From Candidatus Fervidifonticultor secundus (lineage in GTDB: Bacteria > Sysuimicrobiota > Sysuimicrobiia > Sysuimicrobiales > Humicultoraceae): 64,000 bases of DNA. Where the stretch lies: NCBI GenBank assembly GCA_031459385.1, contig JAVKIP010000008.1, forward strand, positions 64,001-128,000. The letters are read 5' to 3'. The translations under genes and the position numbers were made by a program. This document shows, piece after piece, positions 11,527-17,257 of this stretch (positions within the stretch are counted from its first letter, which is position 1; the number at the start of each line of letters is the position of its first letter). The notes beneath the pieces were generated by a model, which searched no databases, was not told the DNA's origin, and worked only from the letters and a program-made list of their open reading frames with translations.

Positions 11527-13878
11527 CTACCTGGCCTCGGTCGCCCTCACTGCCCGGCGCGGTCGTTCCGCGTCCTGGAGGATCGTGCTGCGTCGGCTCA
11601 GGACCACCGCGCCGACGACGAGCGCGAGCGCGACGACGACCACGGCAAGACGCGCGAGACCGGGGAGGGGACGGATGACGACCGGCGCGATGAGGATTGC
11701 CACCAGGTTCATGACCTTGATCATCGGGTTCAGCGCCGGGCCTGCCGTGTCTTTGAGTGGATCTCCGACAGTATCCCCGATGACCCCGGCCTTGTGGGCA
11801 TCACTGCCCTTGCCCCCCAGGTAGCCATCCTCGATCTTCTTCTTGGCGTTATCCCAGGCGCCGCCGGTATTGGCCATGAAGACGGCCAGCAGCTGTGCGG
11901 TGAGGATGGCCCCGGCCAGGTAGGCCCCCAGGGCGCCGGCACCCAGGCCGAAGCCGACGAAGATGGGTACGCCGATCGCGATGATCCCGGGACCGAGTAA
12001 CTCCCGCTGGGCCGCCCGGGTCACGATGTCCACGCTGCGGGAGTAGTCCGGGCGCGCCTTCCCCTCCAGCAGCCCGGGGATCTCCCGGAACTGCCGGCGT
12101 ACCTCCTCCACGACCAGGAACGCGGACCGGCCGACGGCCCGGATGAGGAACGCGGAGACGAGGAACGGCACGGCGCCGCCGATCAGCAGGCCGATGAAGA
12201 CCAGCGGCAGGTTCACCTGGATGCCGACGTGGGACAGCAGGTCCCCGGCGCGATCGGCGCTGGCCGCTTGCAGCTCCTGCACCGTGACGAAGAGGCGCGC
12301 TTCGTCGATGAACGACCGAAACAGCGCGATCGCGGCGACCACCGCGGTGGCGATCGCGAACCCCTTGGTGAGCGCCTTGGTCGTGTTGCCGATCTGGTCC
12401 AGCCGCGCCACGATGCGGCCGGCCAGTGAGCCGCCCCGCTCGACGCCCGACATCTCGAAGATGCCGTTGGCGTTGTCCACGATCGGGCCGAAGGTGTCTT
12501 CTGCCAGGATGAACCCTGTCGTCGTGAGCAAGCCGAGGCCGGCCAGCGCGACGCCATAGGCCGCCAGCGCCACGCTGCCGCCGAAGATCGTGAACGACGC
12601 CACCAGCGTGACGGCGATGGCCAGGATGGCCCACACGGTGCTCTCCAGCCCGGCGCCCAACCCGGTGAGCAGCATCGTCGCTGGTCCGGTCTTGGTCGAG
12701 TAGGCGATCTCCGTCACCGGGCCGCGATCCGGATGGGTGAACAGCTCCGTCAACCAGCCGATGCCCAGGGCGAGGAGGATGCCGGTCAGCGTGGCGAGGA
12801 AGAAGCGGAAGTCCGGCATGCCGGTCTGGGGGTCCTTCAGGTAGAAGACGTTCACCAGCCCGAAGCCGGCCACGGAGAGGCCCGCCGCCGTCCAGAAGCC
12901 GACGTTGATGGGCCGCATCGGGTCACCGAGTTCCTCATCCCGGGCGCGCACCACCCAGGTCCCGATGAGCGAGCCGAAGACCCCGATGGCGCGCACCAGC
13001 AGCGGGTAGATGATCAGCTTCAGGGCGAAGCCGCCGGCGGCGGCGATTCCCCCATAGCGGGCGACGAAGGCCGGGTCGAGCAGCGTGGCGGCGCCGAGGA
13101 TGATCGCCGCCACCAGCGTCACCTCGTAGCTCTCGAAGACATCGGCGGCCATGCCGGCGCAGTCGCCGACGTTGTCGCCCACGTTGTCCGCGATGACGGC
13201 GGCGTTGCGCGGGTCGTCTTCGGGAATTCCGACCTCCACCTTGCCCACCAGGTCGGCGCCGACGTCCGCCGCCTTGGTGTAGATACCGCCGCCGACGCGC
13301 ATGAACGCCGCGACGAGCGAGCCGCCGAAGCCGAAACCCACCAGCACGCGCATCGCGTTCTCGCGGAACAGCATGAACATGATCGTCGCTCCCAGCAGGC
13401 CCAGCCCCACGGTGAACATCCCCGAGATCGTGCCCGCCTGGAAGGCGATCTGCAGGGCCTCGCGGTAGCTGCGCCGGGCAGCGTTCGCCACCCGAACGTT
13501 GCCGTGCACGGCCGAGGTCATCCCCACGTACCCGGCCCCGTAGCTGGCGACGCAGCCCAGCAGGAACGCCGCAGCGATACCAAGGGCCAGCTGCGGGCGG
13601 TCAGTGTAGATCGGCCGGTACAGCACGTAGAGTCCCACGGTCACGGCGATGATGAACAGCAGCATCGTCCGCAGCTGTCGGGTGAGGTAGGCCATCGCGC
13701 CTTCCTGGATCGCACTGGCGACTGCGACCATCGACGCCGGACCCGGGTCGCGGCTGAGTACCCGTCGCCGCAGGTACCAGCCGTATCCCAGCGCGAGGAT
13801 ACTGCTGGCCAGCACCAGCCAGAGCAGGAGCGTTTCCTGGGCGCCAAACTCAGGGAGTGTGATCGTCGCCTCGCTCAT
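11527..13878 (-). CDS. hppA: Membrane-bound ion-translocating pyrophosphatase, predicted K+-independent H+ pump
   Basis: GGGIYTKAADVGADLVGKVE, EDDPRN, DNVGDNVGD, GNTTKA, GDTVGDPLKDTAGP; RBS GGAGG before ATG. Confidence 0.95.
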   Translation of the reverse strand: MSEATITLPEFGAQETLLLWLVLASSILALGYGWYLRRRVLSRDPGPASMVAVASAIQEGAMAYLTRQLRTMLLFIIAVTVGLYVLYRPIYTDRPQLALGIAAAFLLGCVASYGAGYVGMTSAVHGNVRVANAARRSYREALQIAFQAGTISGMFTVGLGLLGATIMFMLFRENAMRVLVGFGFGGSLVAAFMRVGGGIYTKAADVGADLVGKVEVGIPEDDPRNAAVIADNVGDNVGDCAGMAADVFESYEVTLVAAIILGAATLLDPAFVARYGGIAAAGGFALKLIIYPLLVRAIGVFGSLIGTWVVRARDEELGDPMRPINVGFWTAAGLSVAGFGLVNVFYLKDPQTGMPDFRFFLATLTGILLALGIGWLTELFTHPDRGPVTEIAYSTKTGPATMLLTGLGAGLESTVWAILAIAVTLVASFTIFGGSVALAAYGVALAGLGLLTTTGFILAEDTFGPIVDNANGIFEMSGVERGGSLAGRIVARLDQIGNTTKALTKGFAIATAVVAAIALFRSFIDEARLFVTVQELQAASADRAGDLLSHVGIQVNLPLVFIGLLIGGAVPFLVSAFLIRAVGRSAFLVVEEVRRQFREIPGLLEGKARPDYSRSVDIVTRAAQRELLGPGIIAIGVPIFVGFGLGAGALGAYLAGAILTAQLLAVFMANTGGAWDNAKKKIEDGYLGGKGSDAHKAGVIGDTVGDPLKDTAGPALNPMIKVMNLVAILIAPVVIRPLPGLARLAVVVVALALVVGAVVLSRRSTILQDAERPRRAVRATEAR

Positions 13879-14320
13879 CGTGCCTCCACGCTGTCGCCGG
13901 GGCCGCGCGCCCGACGTGGCCTGCCAGGCATAGGTGCCCCGTGCGGCCCACGGTACCCTGAACCGGCGCACAGGACAAGGGCCAGGCGGCGCCGGGTGCG
14001 CGACATGCCGGAGACCGGGGGCTGGTCAAGACCGCCCCGGCGCTGCCGATCAGGAGCAACGCCGGGAGGGAGCGGGGTGGCCCAGCGGAACACGCGGCAT
14101 CCTGACTGGCGCTGCCGGCAGATCGCGCGCCCGCGCCGAGGTGAAAGGGTCGGGGGCGGGAACCGGATCGACGTCCTCCGGCACACCGTCGGCCCGGAGG
14201 GGACACCCCCGACCCTGACCTGACCGGCCGCATTCTTCATGGAACCCAGCCCATCCCCCTGTGGAACCCGAGGGTTTCCAGCCCTGGTGGGGCGTATTCA
14301 GTAGAAGAAGGAGACGAGAT

Positions 14321-14378
14321 TTCATGATCAATGAAGTTTTCAGAGATAAGGGGAGGAACTTCAGTGCCAGCGCAGAAG
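14321..14378 (+). promoter_or_regulatory. Candidate operator palindrome plus alternative-sigma promoter of the peptide gene
   Basis: TTCAT-N5-ATGAA at 14321-14335; AGGA(14354-57)-N17-GAAG(14375-78); AT-richer patch in a GC-rich window. Confidence 0.45.
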
Positions 14379-14486
14379 AAAGCCGCGACCCCCAGAGGTC
14401 GGACAGCCGCCGCGCCGCAGTCCTGCCGCCACGTCGCGCCATCTGGGGCCAGGGTACTAGGTCGGCAGACGAGGGAGGGGATCGTC

Positions 14487-14672
14487 GTGAGGACGCTCAT
14501 CGCACTGGTAGTGTCCGGGATCGTCCTGCTCGCGGGTGTGGCGGGTCCGGCCGTTCGGGTCGCCGGCCACGGCGACGGTGAGGTGCTGGGCGGTGCGATC
14601 GCCGGCCACGGCGACGGAGAGATCCTGGGCGGCGCGGTCGCCGGCCACGGGGACGGTGAGGTCCTGGGGTAG
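14487..14672 (+). CDS. 61-aa putative secreted propeptide with three tandem cores (candidate RRNPP-type signalling precursor)
   Basis: RBS GAGGGAGGGG at 14471-80, GTG start; MRTLIALVVSGIVLLAGVAGPAVR then VAGHGDGEVLGGA/IAGHGDGEILGGA/VAGHGDGEVLG-stop. Confidence 0.8.
   Translation: MRTLIALVVSGIVLLAGVAGPAVRVAGHGDGEVLGGAIAGHGDGEILGGAVAGHGDGEVLG
14559..14669 (+). repeat. In-frame 39-nt tandem repeat x3 (last copy truncated by stop)
   Basis: Units start at 14559, 14598 and 14637; differences are synonymous or Val/Ile. Confidence 0.95.
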
Positions 14673-14709
14673 GCTGCGTGCCCATCGTTTCCAGGAGGCA
14701 CGGCGGAAT

Positions 14710-16002
14710 GTGACGCTCGGCCAGAAGATCCGTCAGGCGCGCAAGGCGCGCGGCATCACGCAGCGCCAGCTGGCAGGCGGGGATCTGTCGGAGAGCTTCA
14801 TCAGCATGCTGGAGCACGACAAGGTCCGGCCGTCGCTGGAGACGCTGCGCATCCTGGCTGCGCGCCTGGGCACGCCCCTGGCCGAACTGCTTGAGGCCGA
14901 GCCGGCCCCGCCGGCGCGCGTCGTGGCCGCACTCGGGCGAGGCTCGGCCCTCCTGCGACAGCACCAGTTCACGCCCGCCCTCGAGGCGTTCCAGGACGCC
15001 GAGCGCGTTATCGGCCCGGACGCGCCGCTCGAGTATCACTTCCGCATCCAGATCGGCCTCGGGCAGGCCCTGGTGGGCCTGCGGCAGTTCGACCTGGCGC
15101 GTCAGGCCCTCGACCGCGCGCGCCTCCTGGCCGACTCCCTGGGCAGACCCGACCTGACCGCCCGGGTCGCCAGCGCCACCGGGTTCCTCCACTTGCGGCT
15201 GCGCGACTTCTCGGCGGCGCGCGATGCGTTCACGCGGGCGCTGTCGGCGATTCGATCCGTCGGGCCGGTCGACGCCGAGTTCGAGGGGGCGGTGCTGACC
15301 AACCTGGGGCGCACCTATTCCGAACTCGGGCTGCCGGCGCAAGCCCTCGACTGTTTCCAGGCGGCGCTGCAGCGGCTGGAGCCGCTGGGCGACGTGGGCG
15401 CGCTGGGCCTGCTGCACTTCAACCTGGGCGTGGCCCACGAGCGCCAGCGCGCGTTCGAGCAGGCCCGCGCGCACCTGGAACGCGCCGCGGTGCTCTTCGA
15501 AGCCCAGGAGAACCTCCGGCTCCTGGGCACGGTGAAGCGCAGCCTGGGCATCCTGCTCCTCAACCGCGGCCTGCCCGACCAGGGCGCGGAGGTGCTGGCC
15601 CAGAGTCTGGCCGTGGCGGAACGGCTGGCCGACGATGTGGGCCGCGCCCAGACGCTGACCGAGCTGGCGCGCGCATCGCTCATGCGCGGTGACCTGAAGA
15701 CGGCGCAGTCCCGCGCCGAGGAGGCGATCCGCCTGGCGGTGCGGCTCCAGGATCCCGCCGAGGCCGCGCGGGCTGAGGCGGTGATGGCCGTCGTGTGCTG
15801 GCGCGACGGCCGGCTGCCGGAGGCGGCCCGCCGGTTCGAGTACGCGCTCCAGCAGTTCGAGCGGCTGCACCTCGCCGGCGAGGTGGCCCGCACCAGCCGG
15901 GATTACGCGTTCCTGCTGATGGAGCGGGGAGAGGAGGCCGCCGCAGCGCGGCACTTCGCGCGAGCGTTCCGCGCGCAGGAGACGGCGGGCGTGGCGGACT
16001 GA
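14710..16002 (+). CDS. XRE-HTH + TPR transcriptional regulator (RRNPP-like peptide receptor), 430 aa
   Basis: RBS AGGAGG at 14693; LGQKIRQARKARGITQRQLA..SESFISMLE..RPSLETL HTH; TPR repeats such as VLTNLGRTYSELG and LHFNLGVAHERQ. Confidence 0.88.
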   Translation: MTLGQKIRQARKARGITQRQLAGGDLSESFISMLEHDKVRPSLETLRILAARLGTPLAELLEAEPAPPARVVAALGRGSALLRQHQFTPALEAFQDAERVIGPDAPLEYHFRIQIGLGQALVGLRQFDLARQALDRARLLADSLGRPDLTARVASATGFLHLRLRDFSAARDAFTRALSAIRSVGPVDAEFEGAVLTNLGRTYSELGLPAQALDCFQAALQRLEPLGDVGALGLLHFNLGVAHERQRAFEQARAHLERAAVLFEAQENLRLLGTVKRSLGILLLNRGLPDQGAEVLAQSLAVAERLADDVGRAQTLTELARASLMRGDLKTAQSRAEEAIRLAVRLQDPAEAARAEAVMAVVCWRDGRLPEAARRFEYALQQFERLHLAGEVARTSRDYAFLLMERGEEAAAARHFARAFRAQETAGVAD

Positions 16003-16021: not shown

Positions 16022-17257
16022 TTACGCGATGGAGAGCAGCGCGCGGCCGGCCTGCGCGCGGCCGGCACGCGACGCTTCCAGGGCGATCTCGAAGTAGTGG
16101 GCCGCGCGCTCCTGCTCGCTGCGAGCCTGATAGTGGCGGCCCAGCGCATCCGCCGCCTCGGCCAGTTCCAGCGCGCAGTCTTCTGTTCCCAGCCGGGCCA
16201 CCGCGTCCTCCAGCAGGGGCAGCGCGTCGTCGGGTCGGCCCAGCGCGAGCAGCGCACGGCCCACGACCGCGGCCGCCCTGGCCGCTGCCTGGGCATCCCC
16301 GGCCGCCTGGGCCAGCGCGCGGGCGTGCTGCGCCGCCTCCAGCGCCGCCGGGGCGCTCCCGGCTGCGAGCTGCACGCGCCCCAGGTGAATCAGGGCTTCC
16401 ACCTCGGTCCGCCGGTCGCCGGCCTCCTGCGCGGTCACCCGGGCGCGCTCCAGCGCCTCCAGGGCTTCCTTCGTCGCCTCCTGCCCGTACGCGAGGAGGC
16501 CGAAGCCCAGCAGCGCCCGGCCCCGCAGGGCGCCCAGGCCATAGCGCGCGGCCAGGCGCGCCGCGGTCTCCAGCCGGCGACGCGCCTGCCTGACGTCACC
16601 CCGGTGCAGCAGGGCCATCGCGTGCGCGAGCAGCAGGCGCACGACGAGATCCGGCTGGCGGGCGGGACTGCGCAGGCGTCCCAGCGCATCGCGGAACGTC
16701 GCCGCAGCAGAGGCGGCGTCGCCACGGCGCATCGCCAGCAATCCCGCCACAAGGTCGCGCCGCGCGCGGACGCGCGCGCCCAGGCCACCCGCGAACGCAT
16801 CCAGTTCCTGCAGCAACGCGCGCGCCCGCTCCAGCTGGCCGCCATCGATCTCCAGTTCGGCCAGCGCCAGCACCGCGTCGGCCCGCTGCGGCGCCCAGTC
16901 ACCGGTCGCGGCCAGCTCGGCACTCAACTCCAGCGCGCGGCGGGCCAGGGCCACGTCCTGGCGGGCGGCGAGCTCGCGCGCCCACGCCACCAGACCTTCC
17001 AGTGCGGCCAGGTGCTGGTCCCGGGCGTCTCCGGCGATGGCCGAGAGCGAGGTGTGCAGCCGCCTGGTGAGGTACCGGAGCGTATCGAGGGACGGGTCGG
17101 CGAAGCCCCCCTCGAGCTGACTGATGAAACTCTTGGTATAGTCGGGGCCGGCCAGGTCAGACTGCGTCATGCCCAGCTCGCGCCGCCGCTGCCGGATGCG
17201 ACGGCCGATGGGCGCCTCGTCGGGCCGGACGTGTCGGCGCGAAGGATGCCGTCCCAT
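16022..17257 (-). CDS. XRE-HTH + TPR-like transcriptional regulator, 411 aa
   Basis: IGRRIRQRRRELGMTQSDLA..TKSFISQLE..DPSLDTL HTH followed by Ala/Leu-rich helical repeats. Confidence 0.85.
   Translation of the reverse strand: MGRHPSRRHVRPDEAPIGRRIRQRRRELGMTQSDLAGPDYTKSFISQLEGGFADPSLDTLRYLTRRLHTSLSAIAGDARDQHLAALEGLVAWARELAARQDVALARRALELSAELAATGDWAPQRADAVLALAELEIDGGQLERARALLQELDAFAGGLGARVRARRDLVAGLLAMRRGDAASAAATFRDALGRLRSPARQPDLVVRLLLAHAMALLHRGDVRQARRRLETAARLAARYGLGALRGRALLGFGLLAYGQEATKEALEALERARVTAQEAGDRRTEVEALIHLGRVQLAAGSAPAALEAAQHARALAQAAGDAQAAARAAAVVGRALLALGRPDDALPLLEDAVARLGTEDCALELAEAADALGRHYQARSEQERAAHYFEIALEASRAGRAQAGRALLSIA

Follow-up and report, generated by a model that had tools for sequence, protein, structure and literature searches.

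The stretch of DNA analysed here (the window) comprises 64,000 nucleotides (nt) from Candidatus Fervidifonticultor secundus (contig JAVKIP010000008.1, positions 64,001 to 128,000), which has a 3.3-Mb genome with 72% G+C. It carries a small propeptide gene with three internal repeats, followed by the gene of a candidate receptor, which we call Rec1; both genes and the sites described with them lie on the plus strand unless stated otherwise. The propeptide gene (14487..14672; 61 codons plus TAG, with a GTG start) was delineated from its translation and from the conserved open reading frame (ORF) found upstream of receptor orthologs. The frame is open from 14331, and the GTG at 14487 is the start favoured by comparison with relatives; a Shine-Dalgarno-like GGGAGGGG (14472..14479), read from the sequence, lies 7 nt before it. 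The precursor begins with an arginine at position 2 and a 17-residue hydrophobic stretch, followed by a short pro-region. Residues 1-19 (14487..14543) are predicted heuristically to be a Sec signal peptide, likely cut after G-V-A, a site that we infer from the -3/-1 rule. Rec1 (430 amino acid residues (aa); 14710..16002) starts 37 nt downstream of the peptide ORF and is preceded by the sequence AGGAGG at 14693-14698. No terminator-like site was found on the plus strand between the two genes; the sole such site, on the minus strand at 14401-14386, is within chance expectation.

The three 39-nt units were verified in the sequence at 14559-14669, within the 61-aa ORF, and Tandem Repeats Finder reported the array at 14560-14668 (score 176, period 39, 2.8 copies, 88% matches). 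Read in frame from the GTG at 14487, the units translate as VAGHGDGEVLGGA, IAGHGDGEILGGA and VAGHGDGEVLG, the last followed by the stop codon. Units 1 and 3 differ at three nucleotides, all third-position and all synonymous. Units 1 and 2 differ at five nucleotides in four codons (two synonymous and two Val/Ile), and units 2 and 3 also at five (three synonymous codons and two Val/Ile codons). There is no change at any second codon position among the three units, and the sole type of amino acid change is Val/Ile. The hexapeptide GHGDGE occurs three times in a six-frame translation of the whole genome, each time within the peptide gene, and a degenerate DNA pattern for it found three forward matches in the genome, none in reverse and none with a backwards control pattern. 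The window repeat exceeds chance expectation. The first-pass annotation of this DNA, made from the letters alone, had described the three units with their synonymous or Val/Ile differences and the stop after LG in the third copy, and had placed a receptor with helix-turn-helix (HTH) and tetratricopeptide repeat (TPR) domains next to the peptide gene; the sequence and the unit comparison bear out the former, and Rec1 answers to the latter. Because three copies alone hold few differences, we drew statistical weight from related loci.

Orthologs of Rec1 were found at 67-74% identity in other genera of the family and at 44-51% in further genera and a second family. At E <= 1e-40, matches were present in 72 of 94 genomes of the phylum (29/33 in family f1, 18/22 in f2, 22/23 in f4 and 0/12 in f5), tallies that take in the unpublished genomes G010 and G019. 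Removal of identical upstream regions gave 28 distinct loci, L004 being the window locus. One locus, L017 (from G019), was left out because its contig ends inside the receptor, and L019 comes from G010; the public L045 has an identical upstream region, so no claim is made on L019 alone. Candidate peptide genes were recognized by a heuristic that combines position, a basic residue within the first four or five and small or hydrophobic residues at 13 of 14 positions, and that makes no use of the core motif. All 27 complete distinct loci have an ORF of this kind 15-149 nt ahead of the receptor; the 28th, L006, is cut by a contig end and still shows at least five units. A small ORF was likewise found upstream in all five further orthologs (L079-L083; slightly looser heuristic) and in all nine new orthologs of 47-72% identity (L103, L106-L112 and L115; control heuristic). 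In total, a signal-peptide-like small ORF stands upstream of 42 of 42 distinct receptor orthologs (at least 44% identity), a count of mutually related loci and not of independent events. As a control, the heuristic was satisfied at 115 of 2000 random windows of this genome.

The orthologous precursors are 36-94 aa long, and all carry, after the signal peptide, a core of the type G-x-G-(D/G/N)-x-(E/D)-x-hydrophobic. The core GHGDGE(L/V/I)L is shared by this genome and L008, L009, L012, L027, L028, L035 and L103. Other cores are GHGDGPVL (L007), GHGDGGVS (L006), GHGDIEAL (L016), GDGNIEVI (L013 and L015), GVGDGD (L010), G(S/R/P/H)(G/P)D-x-D-x-(F/Y)G in a group of orthologs referred to here as the 50% clade, and GHGG(G/A)ELL in family f2. 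Peptide classes coincide with clades. Copy number ranges widely: precursors are single-copy in L010, L011, the 50% clade and genus g28, among others; two copies were counted in L013, L015, L016, L028, L042 and L047, three in the window gene, L009, L012, L014, L035, L080 and L081, four in L008, L027 and L103, five in L007 and at least five in L006. Close relatives also vary, with two copies in L028, three in L012 and four in L008, all with an NGG(G)W spacer. The octapeptide GHGGGELL is identical across several f2 genera (L079, L082, L106-L112, L115, L042, L044 and L047), in precursors that differ in their signal peptides and tails. In genus g28 the octapeptide comes directly after a signal-peptidase-type site and has a basic tail behind it; the core thus need not be C-terminal.

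The boundaries of the unit were read from the orthologs. Spacers differ by lineage (GGA(I/V), NGGGW, NGGW, DREM, GGQF or GGP(L/M)), and L006 and L013 have none, with a period of 9 residues. In L080 and L081, of family f2, three octapeptides (GHGGAELL) abut one another and the stop codon comes right after the last; several other f2 genes also stop directly after ...ELL. An A-x-A or x-F-A signal-peptidase-type site (xFA|G in g28) stands immediately before the core in genus g28 and in the 50% clade, and in multi-copy genes an alanine precedes every core. Because of the orthologs that stop after ...ELL and the spacerless f2 arrays, we take the unit to be an octapeptide, from Gly to the hydrophobic eighth residue. 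By this comparison the conserved units of the window gene are two copies of GHGDGEVL and one of GHGDGEIL. Core 1, GHGDGEVL, spans residues 27-34 (14565..14588), with boundaries taken from the arrays in L080 and L081. It is followed by spacer 1, GGAIA (14589..14603), which in orthologs varies or is missing and is always Ala-terminated before the next core; by core 2, GHGDGEIL (residues 40-47, 14604..14627; translation and motif scan); by spacer 2, GGAVA (14628..14642), assigned on the same basis as spacer 1; and by core 3, GHGDGEVL (residues 53-60), which together with the terminal Gly occupies 14643..14669, ahead of the stop codon at 14670-14672.

Self-similarity was then measured gene by gene at all lags from 18 to 59, so that units were not picked by motif. 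Repeats at the DNA level were present in 13 genes, with best lags of 24, 27, 36, 39 and 42, all multiples of three (8, 9, 12, 13 and 14 residues). Mismatches between adjacent units fell at codon positions 1, 2 and 3 in the ratio 4/2/47 (chi-square p = 1.3e-16, a value that overstates independence since the loci are related, although the direction is unambiguous), and the codon differences comprised 47 synonymous versus 5 non-synonymous changes. All 13 mismatches in L007 and all seven in L081 are synonymous. Divergence at silent sites around a constant peptide therefore shows that the copies are old and that each has been kept by selection on the peptide. Purifying selection on each copy is what one would expect if every copy were released and used. 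These results also bear on the possibility that the ORF is a chance frame in a high-GC genome and the repeat a non-coding tandem repeat. Spurious ORFs are common in high-GC DNA, and several overlap the peptide region here. All 42 ortholog loci nevertheless share the frame, the signal peptide and the core, every period is a multiple of three, 47 of 53 mismatches are third-position, and there are no frameshifts or internal stops. We give the chance frame virtually no credence, and in these sequence comparisons the codon-position analysis of the 13 genes refutes it.

Several proposals of the first-pass annotation can be judged at this point. It had taken the ORF for a real gene, and the conserved ORF upstream of receptor orthologs agrees; its view that selection acts on the peptide fits both the 47:5 ratio and the periods in multiples of three. 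Its spacer, here GGA(V/I)A, is replaced by NGGGW, DREM, GGQF, GGPL or nothing in other genomes. Frameshifts or non-synonymous drift, which it had named as grounds for abandoning the idea, were not seen in the orthologous repeats, and the comparison of copy number and core sequence that it called for across orthologous loci gave 1 to at least 5 copies. Its placement of the mature C-terminus at the final Gly (...DGEVLG) calls for adjustment, the unit ending at ...GE(V/I)L and orthologs stopping after ...ELL. The Val and Ile variants, which it read as incipient specificity divergence, are weak evidence for that, because this is the most variable core position (V, I, L, A or M across orthologs). 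A relation to the calcium-binding nonapeptide repeats of RTX proteins was considered and rejected. The RTX consensus, GGxGxDxUx, has a period of 9 with Asp sixth; here the periods are 8, 9, 12, 13 and 14, and the acidic residues stand at positions 4 and 6 in the G-x-G register.

Rec1 consists of an XRE-type HTH (residues 3-61) and 18 helices forming nine TPR-like repeats (residues 69-426), and has no signal peptide. Pfam matches are HTH_3 (1.8e-11), TPR_12 (4.4e-30), TPR_2 (2.8e-20) and TPR_1 (4e-18). The AlphaFold model, built with an alignment of 13 orthologs, has a mean pLDDT of 93.1 and shows a five-helix HTH followed by the 18 helices. A Foldseek search with the model placed the TPR domains of LGN/Pins at the top, with PlcR and Rap proteins further down. 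VIA-align, run on the Foldseek list, aligned the Rec1 TPR domain with RapI (Z 32.4 over 354 residues, root-mean-square deviation 3.3), with apo NprR (Z 28.7, 349 of 352 residues aligned) and with RapJ-type and phage phi3T and phi105 Rap proteins (Z 26.0-28.6, the phage proteins over 339-352 residues), comparisons that do not discriminate between RRNPP receptors and generic TPR superhelices. As modelled, the architecture and fold of Rec1 match the HTH-9TPR class of RRNPPA receptors. A complex prediction for the Rec1 TPR domain (residues 64-430, alignment A1) and the pro-region (24-61) scored 0.01 against a mark of 0.32; having been run without controls, it is neutral on binding. In a protein atlas, Rec1 falls among unnamed clusters of about 430 aa with HTH_3 and TPR_12, and the few members with a recorded phylum, which serve as leads only, come from Dormibacterota, Actinomycetota and Sysuimicrobiota.

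A composite element, TTCA-N7-TGAA, N19 and GGAACTTCA, lies at 14321..14363, with 123 nt between its end and the start codon of the peptide gene. Of the 28 distinct orthologous loci, 21 have the element, spaced alike (N7; N19-20) and 87-188 nt ahead of the peptide gene, and GTCGAA usually follows 8-11 nt beyond the GGAACTTCA part. The palindrome TGAAGT...AACTTCA occurs only once in the whole genome, at this element. Conserved arm sequences and variable loops suit a protein-binding site; the element is probably an operator or promoter of a peptide-receptor operon, and the neighbouring HTH protein is the obvious candidate for its binder. Three short, mutually complementary segments of the element could alternatively form RNA hairpins. 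Rfam gave no match in 13950-14750 at E <= 1, and a sigma-70 promoter scan returned no sites. An extracytoplasmic function (ECF) sigma-type promoter was considered for GGAACTT...GTCGAA and rejected, the spacing being some 4-5 nt too short against the consensus.

Taken together, these features make it fairly probable, in our judgement, that the cassette is an RRNPP-like peptide-receptor signalling pair with a poly-pheromone precursor. In the accessible text of PMC10075063, the RRNPP signature has five elements. Four are found here: a propeptide of 10-100 aa (61 aa), a receptor of 250-500 aa (Rec1, 430 aa), TPRs in the receptor (Pfam matches, and nine repeats in the model), and neighbours -60 to 400 bp apart (37 nt, and 15-149 nt in orthologs). 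The fifth, Sec export, is predicted for the window gene and all orthologs by a heuristic for the N-region and hydrophobic stretch rather than by SignalP. In the mechanism that we propose, the 61-aa precursor would be exported by Sec and lose its signal peptide, and extracellular or periplasmic proteases would cut between Ala and Gly at each conserved junction and behind the hydrophobic residue at position eight. Each precursor would thereby release three octapeptides, two of GHGDGEVL and one of GHGDGEIL. The peptides would accumulate, be re-imported via Opp/Dpp-type binding proteins and bind in the concave groove of the nine-TPR domain of Rec1, which probably acts on the palindromic element upstream of the peptide gene and so closes an autoregulatory loop. 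Tandem copies would raise the signal output per transcript, and copy number may drift by unequal recombination, with each copy under purifying selection. Export, cleavage sites, re-import, binding and the targets of the regulator are all steps that we infer.

According to the available sections of PMC11604079, the host phylum CSP1-3 is Candidatus Sysuimicrobiota, of which enrichment cultures are reported there. Carriers of the cassette include Ca. Fervidifonticultor, Ca. Geohabitans and organisms entered as 'Armatimonadetes bacterium CSP1-3' and 'Armatimonadota bacterium'. The genome has one match to LpxC (9.4e-84) and one to Omp85 (2.6e-38), on the same contig. Among the control genomes Omp85 was detected in seven only, all of them diderm, and LpxC in four of those seven. 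The presence of LpxC and Omp85 therefore points, at the level of gene content, to an outer membrane with lipopolysaccharide (LPS). The genome also contains 54 matches to SBP_bac_5, the Opp/Dpp-type peptide-binding family, an unusually large expansion for 3.3 Mb. The phylum has gained peptide/nickel and oligopeptide transporters, as stated in the accessible part of PMC11962464.

A number of observations weigh against RRNPP-like signalling. Given LpxC and Omp85, a Sec-exported peptide would reach the periplasm and have to cross the outer membrane to act as a shared signal, and a CSP1-3 host with outer-membrane genes lies outside the described RRNPP range (Bacillota, their plasmids and phages). 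The likeness of Rec1 to known RRNPP receptors is one of fold, as far as the model goes, and does not establish common descent. An LGN-type eukaryotic TPR protein scores Z 32.5 in VIA-align, level with RapI, and because LGN-type TPRs score as high as RapI, RRNPP homology of Rec1 is not established. A profile search of PDB sequences gave PlcR at 1.9e-7 (HTH only, residues 3-61), Rap105 at 7.5e-5 and RapF at 2e-4, and generic TPR proteins far outscored the known RRNPP receptors. The element was not seen in 7 of the 28 distinct loci (two with too little upstream sequence, four of the f2 branch, and L035, where it is partial). The relatedness of the surveyed loci, already noted, reduces what their number can say. 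The core is also unusually conserved across genera, as with GHGGGELL in several f2 genera, which fits a conserved cue as well as private quorum sensing; RRNPP pheromones are described as highly specific to their own receptor (PMC11343458, in the sections available).

Some of these points would be accommodated if the pair is real and the signal private, the peptides being released in the periplasm and re-imported at once. What such a circuit senses would be protease activity, the state of the envelope or the capacity for peptide transport, or else the peptide would be a conserved cross-species cue, rather than a measure of cell count. LpxC and Omp85, the conservation of cores across genera, the 54 peptide-binding protein matches and the retention of an orphan receptor alone in same-genus relatives (described below) are all in keeping with this. 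Yet octapeptides are small enough to pass general porins, and the sequence features would look alike under true quorum sensing. We consider a private signal improbable.

More distant homologs of the receptor allow the pairing of peptide and receptor to be examined beyond the main family. Among 15 such homologs (30-39% identity), nine have an ORF within 300 nt upstream by a slightly looser heuristic, and eight of these nine ORFs are small (43-58 aa), with cores that differ from the main family. Cores are duplicated at the C-terminus in L096 (VAGDIGPGS, twice), L094 (GQDGPGQ, twice) and, from a separate search, L050 (GDNGPDGNG, twice). No upstream signal-peptide ORF was found in the remaining six of the 15 or in three homologs of 39-40% identity from family f4. 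The genome analysed here has a second cassette, on contig C2 at about 84934-86491 (L002), with a 43-aa signal-peptide ORF ending in ...ADGDMGGGL; the ORF lies 130 nt before a receptor gene of HTH-TPR type whose product is 28% identical. No peptide gene adjoins the third HTH-TPR gene, on contig C12 (L003). Different receptors with different adjoining peptides form, at the level of sequence, the pattern of cognate pairs.

This pattern bears on the idea that the small protein is an exported effector, either metal-binding or an unmodified antimicrobial or surface-active peptide, with the HTH-TPR protein regulating it via another ligand. His, Asp and Glu in the core would suit metal binding, and a cut at Ala|Gly would give an N-terminal Gly-His that resembles the Cu(II) site of the tripeptide GHK; a multi-copy precursor, moreover, would raise the yield of any product. 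His is not family-wide, however, being absent from G(S/R/P)GD... in the 50% clade, GDGNIEVI in L013 and L015, and GVGDGD in L010, and yet the two genes persist in the same arrangement. Nor are the peptides cationic or amphipathic; they are short, acidic and rich in Gly. The neighbourhood contains no genes for immunity or export, and the more distant receptor homologs each come with a peptide of their own, as for ligand-receptor pairs. An effector role thus seems to us unlikely.

The wider neighbourhood is one of ordinary metabolism. Upstream lie genes for HpaB, an FAA hydrolase, an extradiol dioxygenase and an H+-pyrophosphatase, and downstream those for homoserine dehydrogenase (Hom), threonine synthase (ThrC), aspartate kinase (Ask) and a sigma factor. 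Within about 10 kb in the window there is no gene for a maturase, a peptide-modifying enzyme, a dedicated ABC exporter or a protease or peptidase. Of the window's own neighbours, four recur around orthologs, namely the dioxygenase, a second HTH-TPR gene (Rec2), Hom and ThrC. The H+-pyrophosphatase (11527-13971, minus strand) stands between dioxygenase and cassette in this genome only; elsewhere the dioxygenase directly precedes the peptide gene.

We also considered a multi-core precursor of a ribosomally synthesized and post-translationally modified peptide (RiPP), whose enzymes would be encoded elsewhere in the genome. Tandem identical cores with recognition or spacer sequences are typical of several RiPP classes, and the Rec1 TPRs have a weak NCBIfam match to the RiPP-associated TPR protein HaaT (1.3e-8, far below the 1125-bit cut-off). 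The N-terminus, on the other hand, is a classical Sec-type signal peptide and not a leader, and the cores contain no Cys, Ser/Thr pairs or other usual modification targets. Spacerless arrays that end in a stop leave no recognition sequence. Radical-SAM, YcaO, lanthipeptide, protease and ABC-exporter genes are all absent from the surrounding 10 kb or so, in line with the earlier remark in the first-pass annotation that modifying enzymes are missing nearby, and those of the window's own neighbours that recur around orthologs are the dioxygenase, Rec2, Hom and ThrC. We regard a RiPP precursor as very improbable.

Rec2 (16022..17257, minus strand) was recognized by Pfam as a second HTH and TPR paralog, convergent with Rec1 and without a peptide gene of its own. 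Ten of the ortholog loci (L010, L013, L015, L016, L026, L029, L030, L032, L034 and L037) also have it after Rec1 and on the opposite strand, with 40-51% identity, and the gene order in other genera is dioxygenase, peptide, Rec1, Rec2, Hom. Two genomes of the same genus as the window (94% and 97% complete) have the order dioxygenase, Rec2, Hom, with peptide gene and Rec1 missing; about 100 nt of DNA takes the place of pyrophosphatase, peptide gene and Rec1, and neither genome contains the GHGDGE coding pattern anywhere. Rec2 is intact there at 77-78% identity (L099, 5152-6378; L100, 4546-5427). From these two genomes it follows that the signal-plus-receptor module is dispensable and that the orphan receptor outlives its loss. 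By analogy, Rec2 would be an orphan receptor comparable to a LuxR solo.

Tandem pheromones are established in Phr propeptides, with one to four copies and reports of up to eight, and both pheromone copies are produced and active in two phage systems (PMC11343458, available sections). Multi-copy signal precursors are thus no novelty as an idea, and the first-pass annotation had rightly pointed to multi-copy Phr propeptides (same sections of PMC11343458). The cassette resembles the Rap-Phr systems of Bacillus and of phages phi3T and phi105, as described in that text (PMC11343458), in having a Sec-exported propeptide (predicted here) with near-identical copies in variable number. In both, a cytoplasmic TPR receptor is encoded next door, and the extracellular proteolysis that frees each Phr copy would have its counterpart for the window gene; the Rec1 TPR domain superposes on RapI and on phage Rap (Z 28-32). 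Unlike Rec1 with its XRE-type HTH, Rap lacks such a domain and acts on protein targets; the octapeptide here is acidic and rich in Gly, and its gene lies upstream of the receptor gene; the host belongs to CSP1-3 and not to Bacillota; and sequence similarity is marginal (Rap105, 7.5e-5). NprR-NprX of the Bacillus cereus group is alike in combining an HTH with nine TPRs over about 420-430 aa (Z 28.7), but NprR gave no detectable sequence match in the PDB profile search and belongs to another phylum. NprX is exported and taken up again as a 7-8-mer, much as is proposed here, but its gene lies downstream of nprR and encodes one copy.

PlcR-PapR, also of the Bacillus cereus group, shares the XRE-type HTH (1.9e-7, residues 3-61). 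PlcR is autoregulated via the palindromic PlcR box upstream of its cassette, to which the locus-specific palindrome found here would correspond, but the box sequence is unrelated, PlcR has five TPRs in about 285 aa, and PapR is single-copy and encoded downstream. Yeast MF-alpha-1 encodes a signal peptide, a pro-region and tandem pheromone copies whose short spacers are cut away, the copy number depending on the gene. The alpha-factor is an analogy only, being eukaryotic, processed in the secretory pathway and sensed by a surface receptor.

In the literature searched, cytoplasmic peptide-pheromone receptors with adjoining propeptide genes are treated as a trait of Bacillota and mobile elements, and the RRNPP_detector survey covers Firmicutes and viruses only in its accessible text (PMC10075063). 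Within the same scope no description of an RRNPP-type system outside Bacillota was found, the CSP1-3 genome papers searched contained no occurrence of 'quorum', and neither the phylum, the outer-membrane context, the peptide family nor the DNA element appears in this connection. Here the same architecture is seen in an uncultured phylum of hot springs and soil with genes for LPS and an outer membrane; if the interpretation is true, peptide signalling extends to diderms. The wider claim would be that genuine RRNPP-type cytoplasmic sensing, based on poly-pheromone precursors, operates in CSP1-3 diderms, whose genomes would each contain several paralogous cassettes and, where the signal gene has been lost, orphan 'eavesdropper' receptors; we advance it tentatively, at slightly less than an even chance. 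The root of RRNPPA, with a nine- versus a five-TPR ancestor, is open, and remote structural homologs might be usable as an outgroup (PMC12700828, in the part available). If Rec1-type receptors share ancestry with NprR, Rap and AimR, they would provide a non-Bacillota outgroup to root RRNPPA (same part of PMC12700828); if they do not, the same circuit, tandem copies included, would have been invented twice. In Rap-Phr the use of internal copies has been shown experimentally only recently (PMC11343458, available sections). The cassettes form a natural series in which precursors have from 1 to at least 5 copies, and the purifying selection shown for every copy adds direct evolutionary evidence that internal copies are used.

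The 61-aa peptide has no match in Pfam or NCBIfam. Six related proteins are present in a protein collection, one of 61 aa with 97% identity and five of 64-80 aa. None has a Pfam domain, one goes by 'hypothetical protein' in its source, and all six have three to four copies of A(R/G)HG(D/E)GE(V/I/L)LGG-type units. Four DNA runs of one hot-spring study contain the locus with three copies, without indels or joints, and no copy-number variants were seen in them. In one of the four, a T>G change at 14560 replaces Val25 by Gly just before core 1, and this variant is protein P0004 of the collection. A related precursor, P0005 (76 aa, from a contig of 11,050 nt), has four ARHGDGEVLGGP(L/M) units, and a contig of the same length (record 2) in hot-spring run X1, which may be the source of the genome analysed here, matches the repeat. 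Two organisms with the HGDGEVL core may thus share one habitat, which would allow cross-talk between them.

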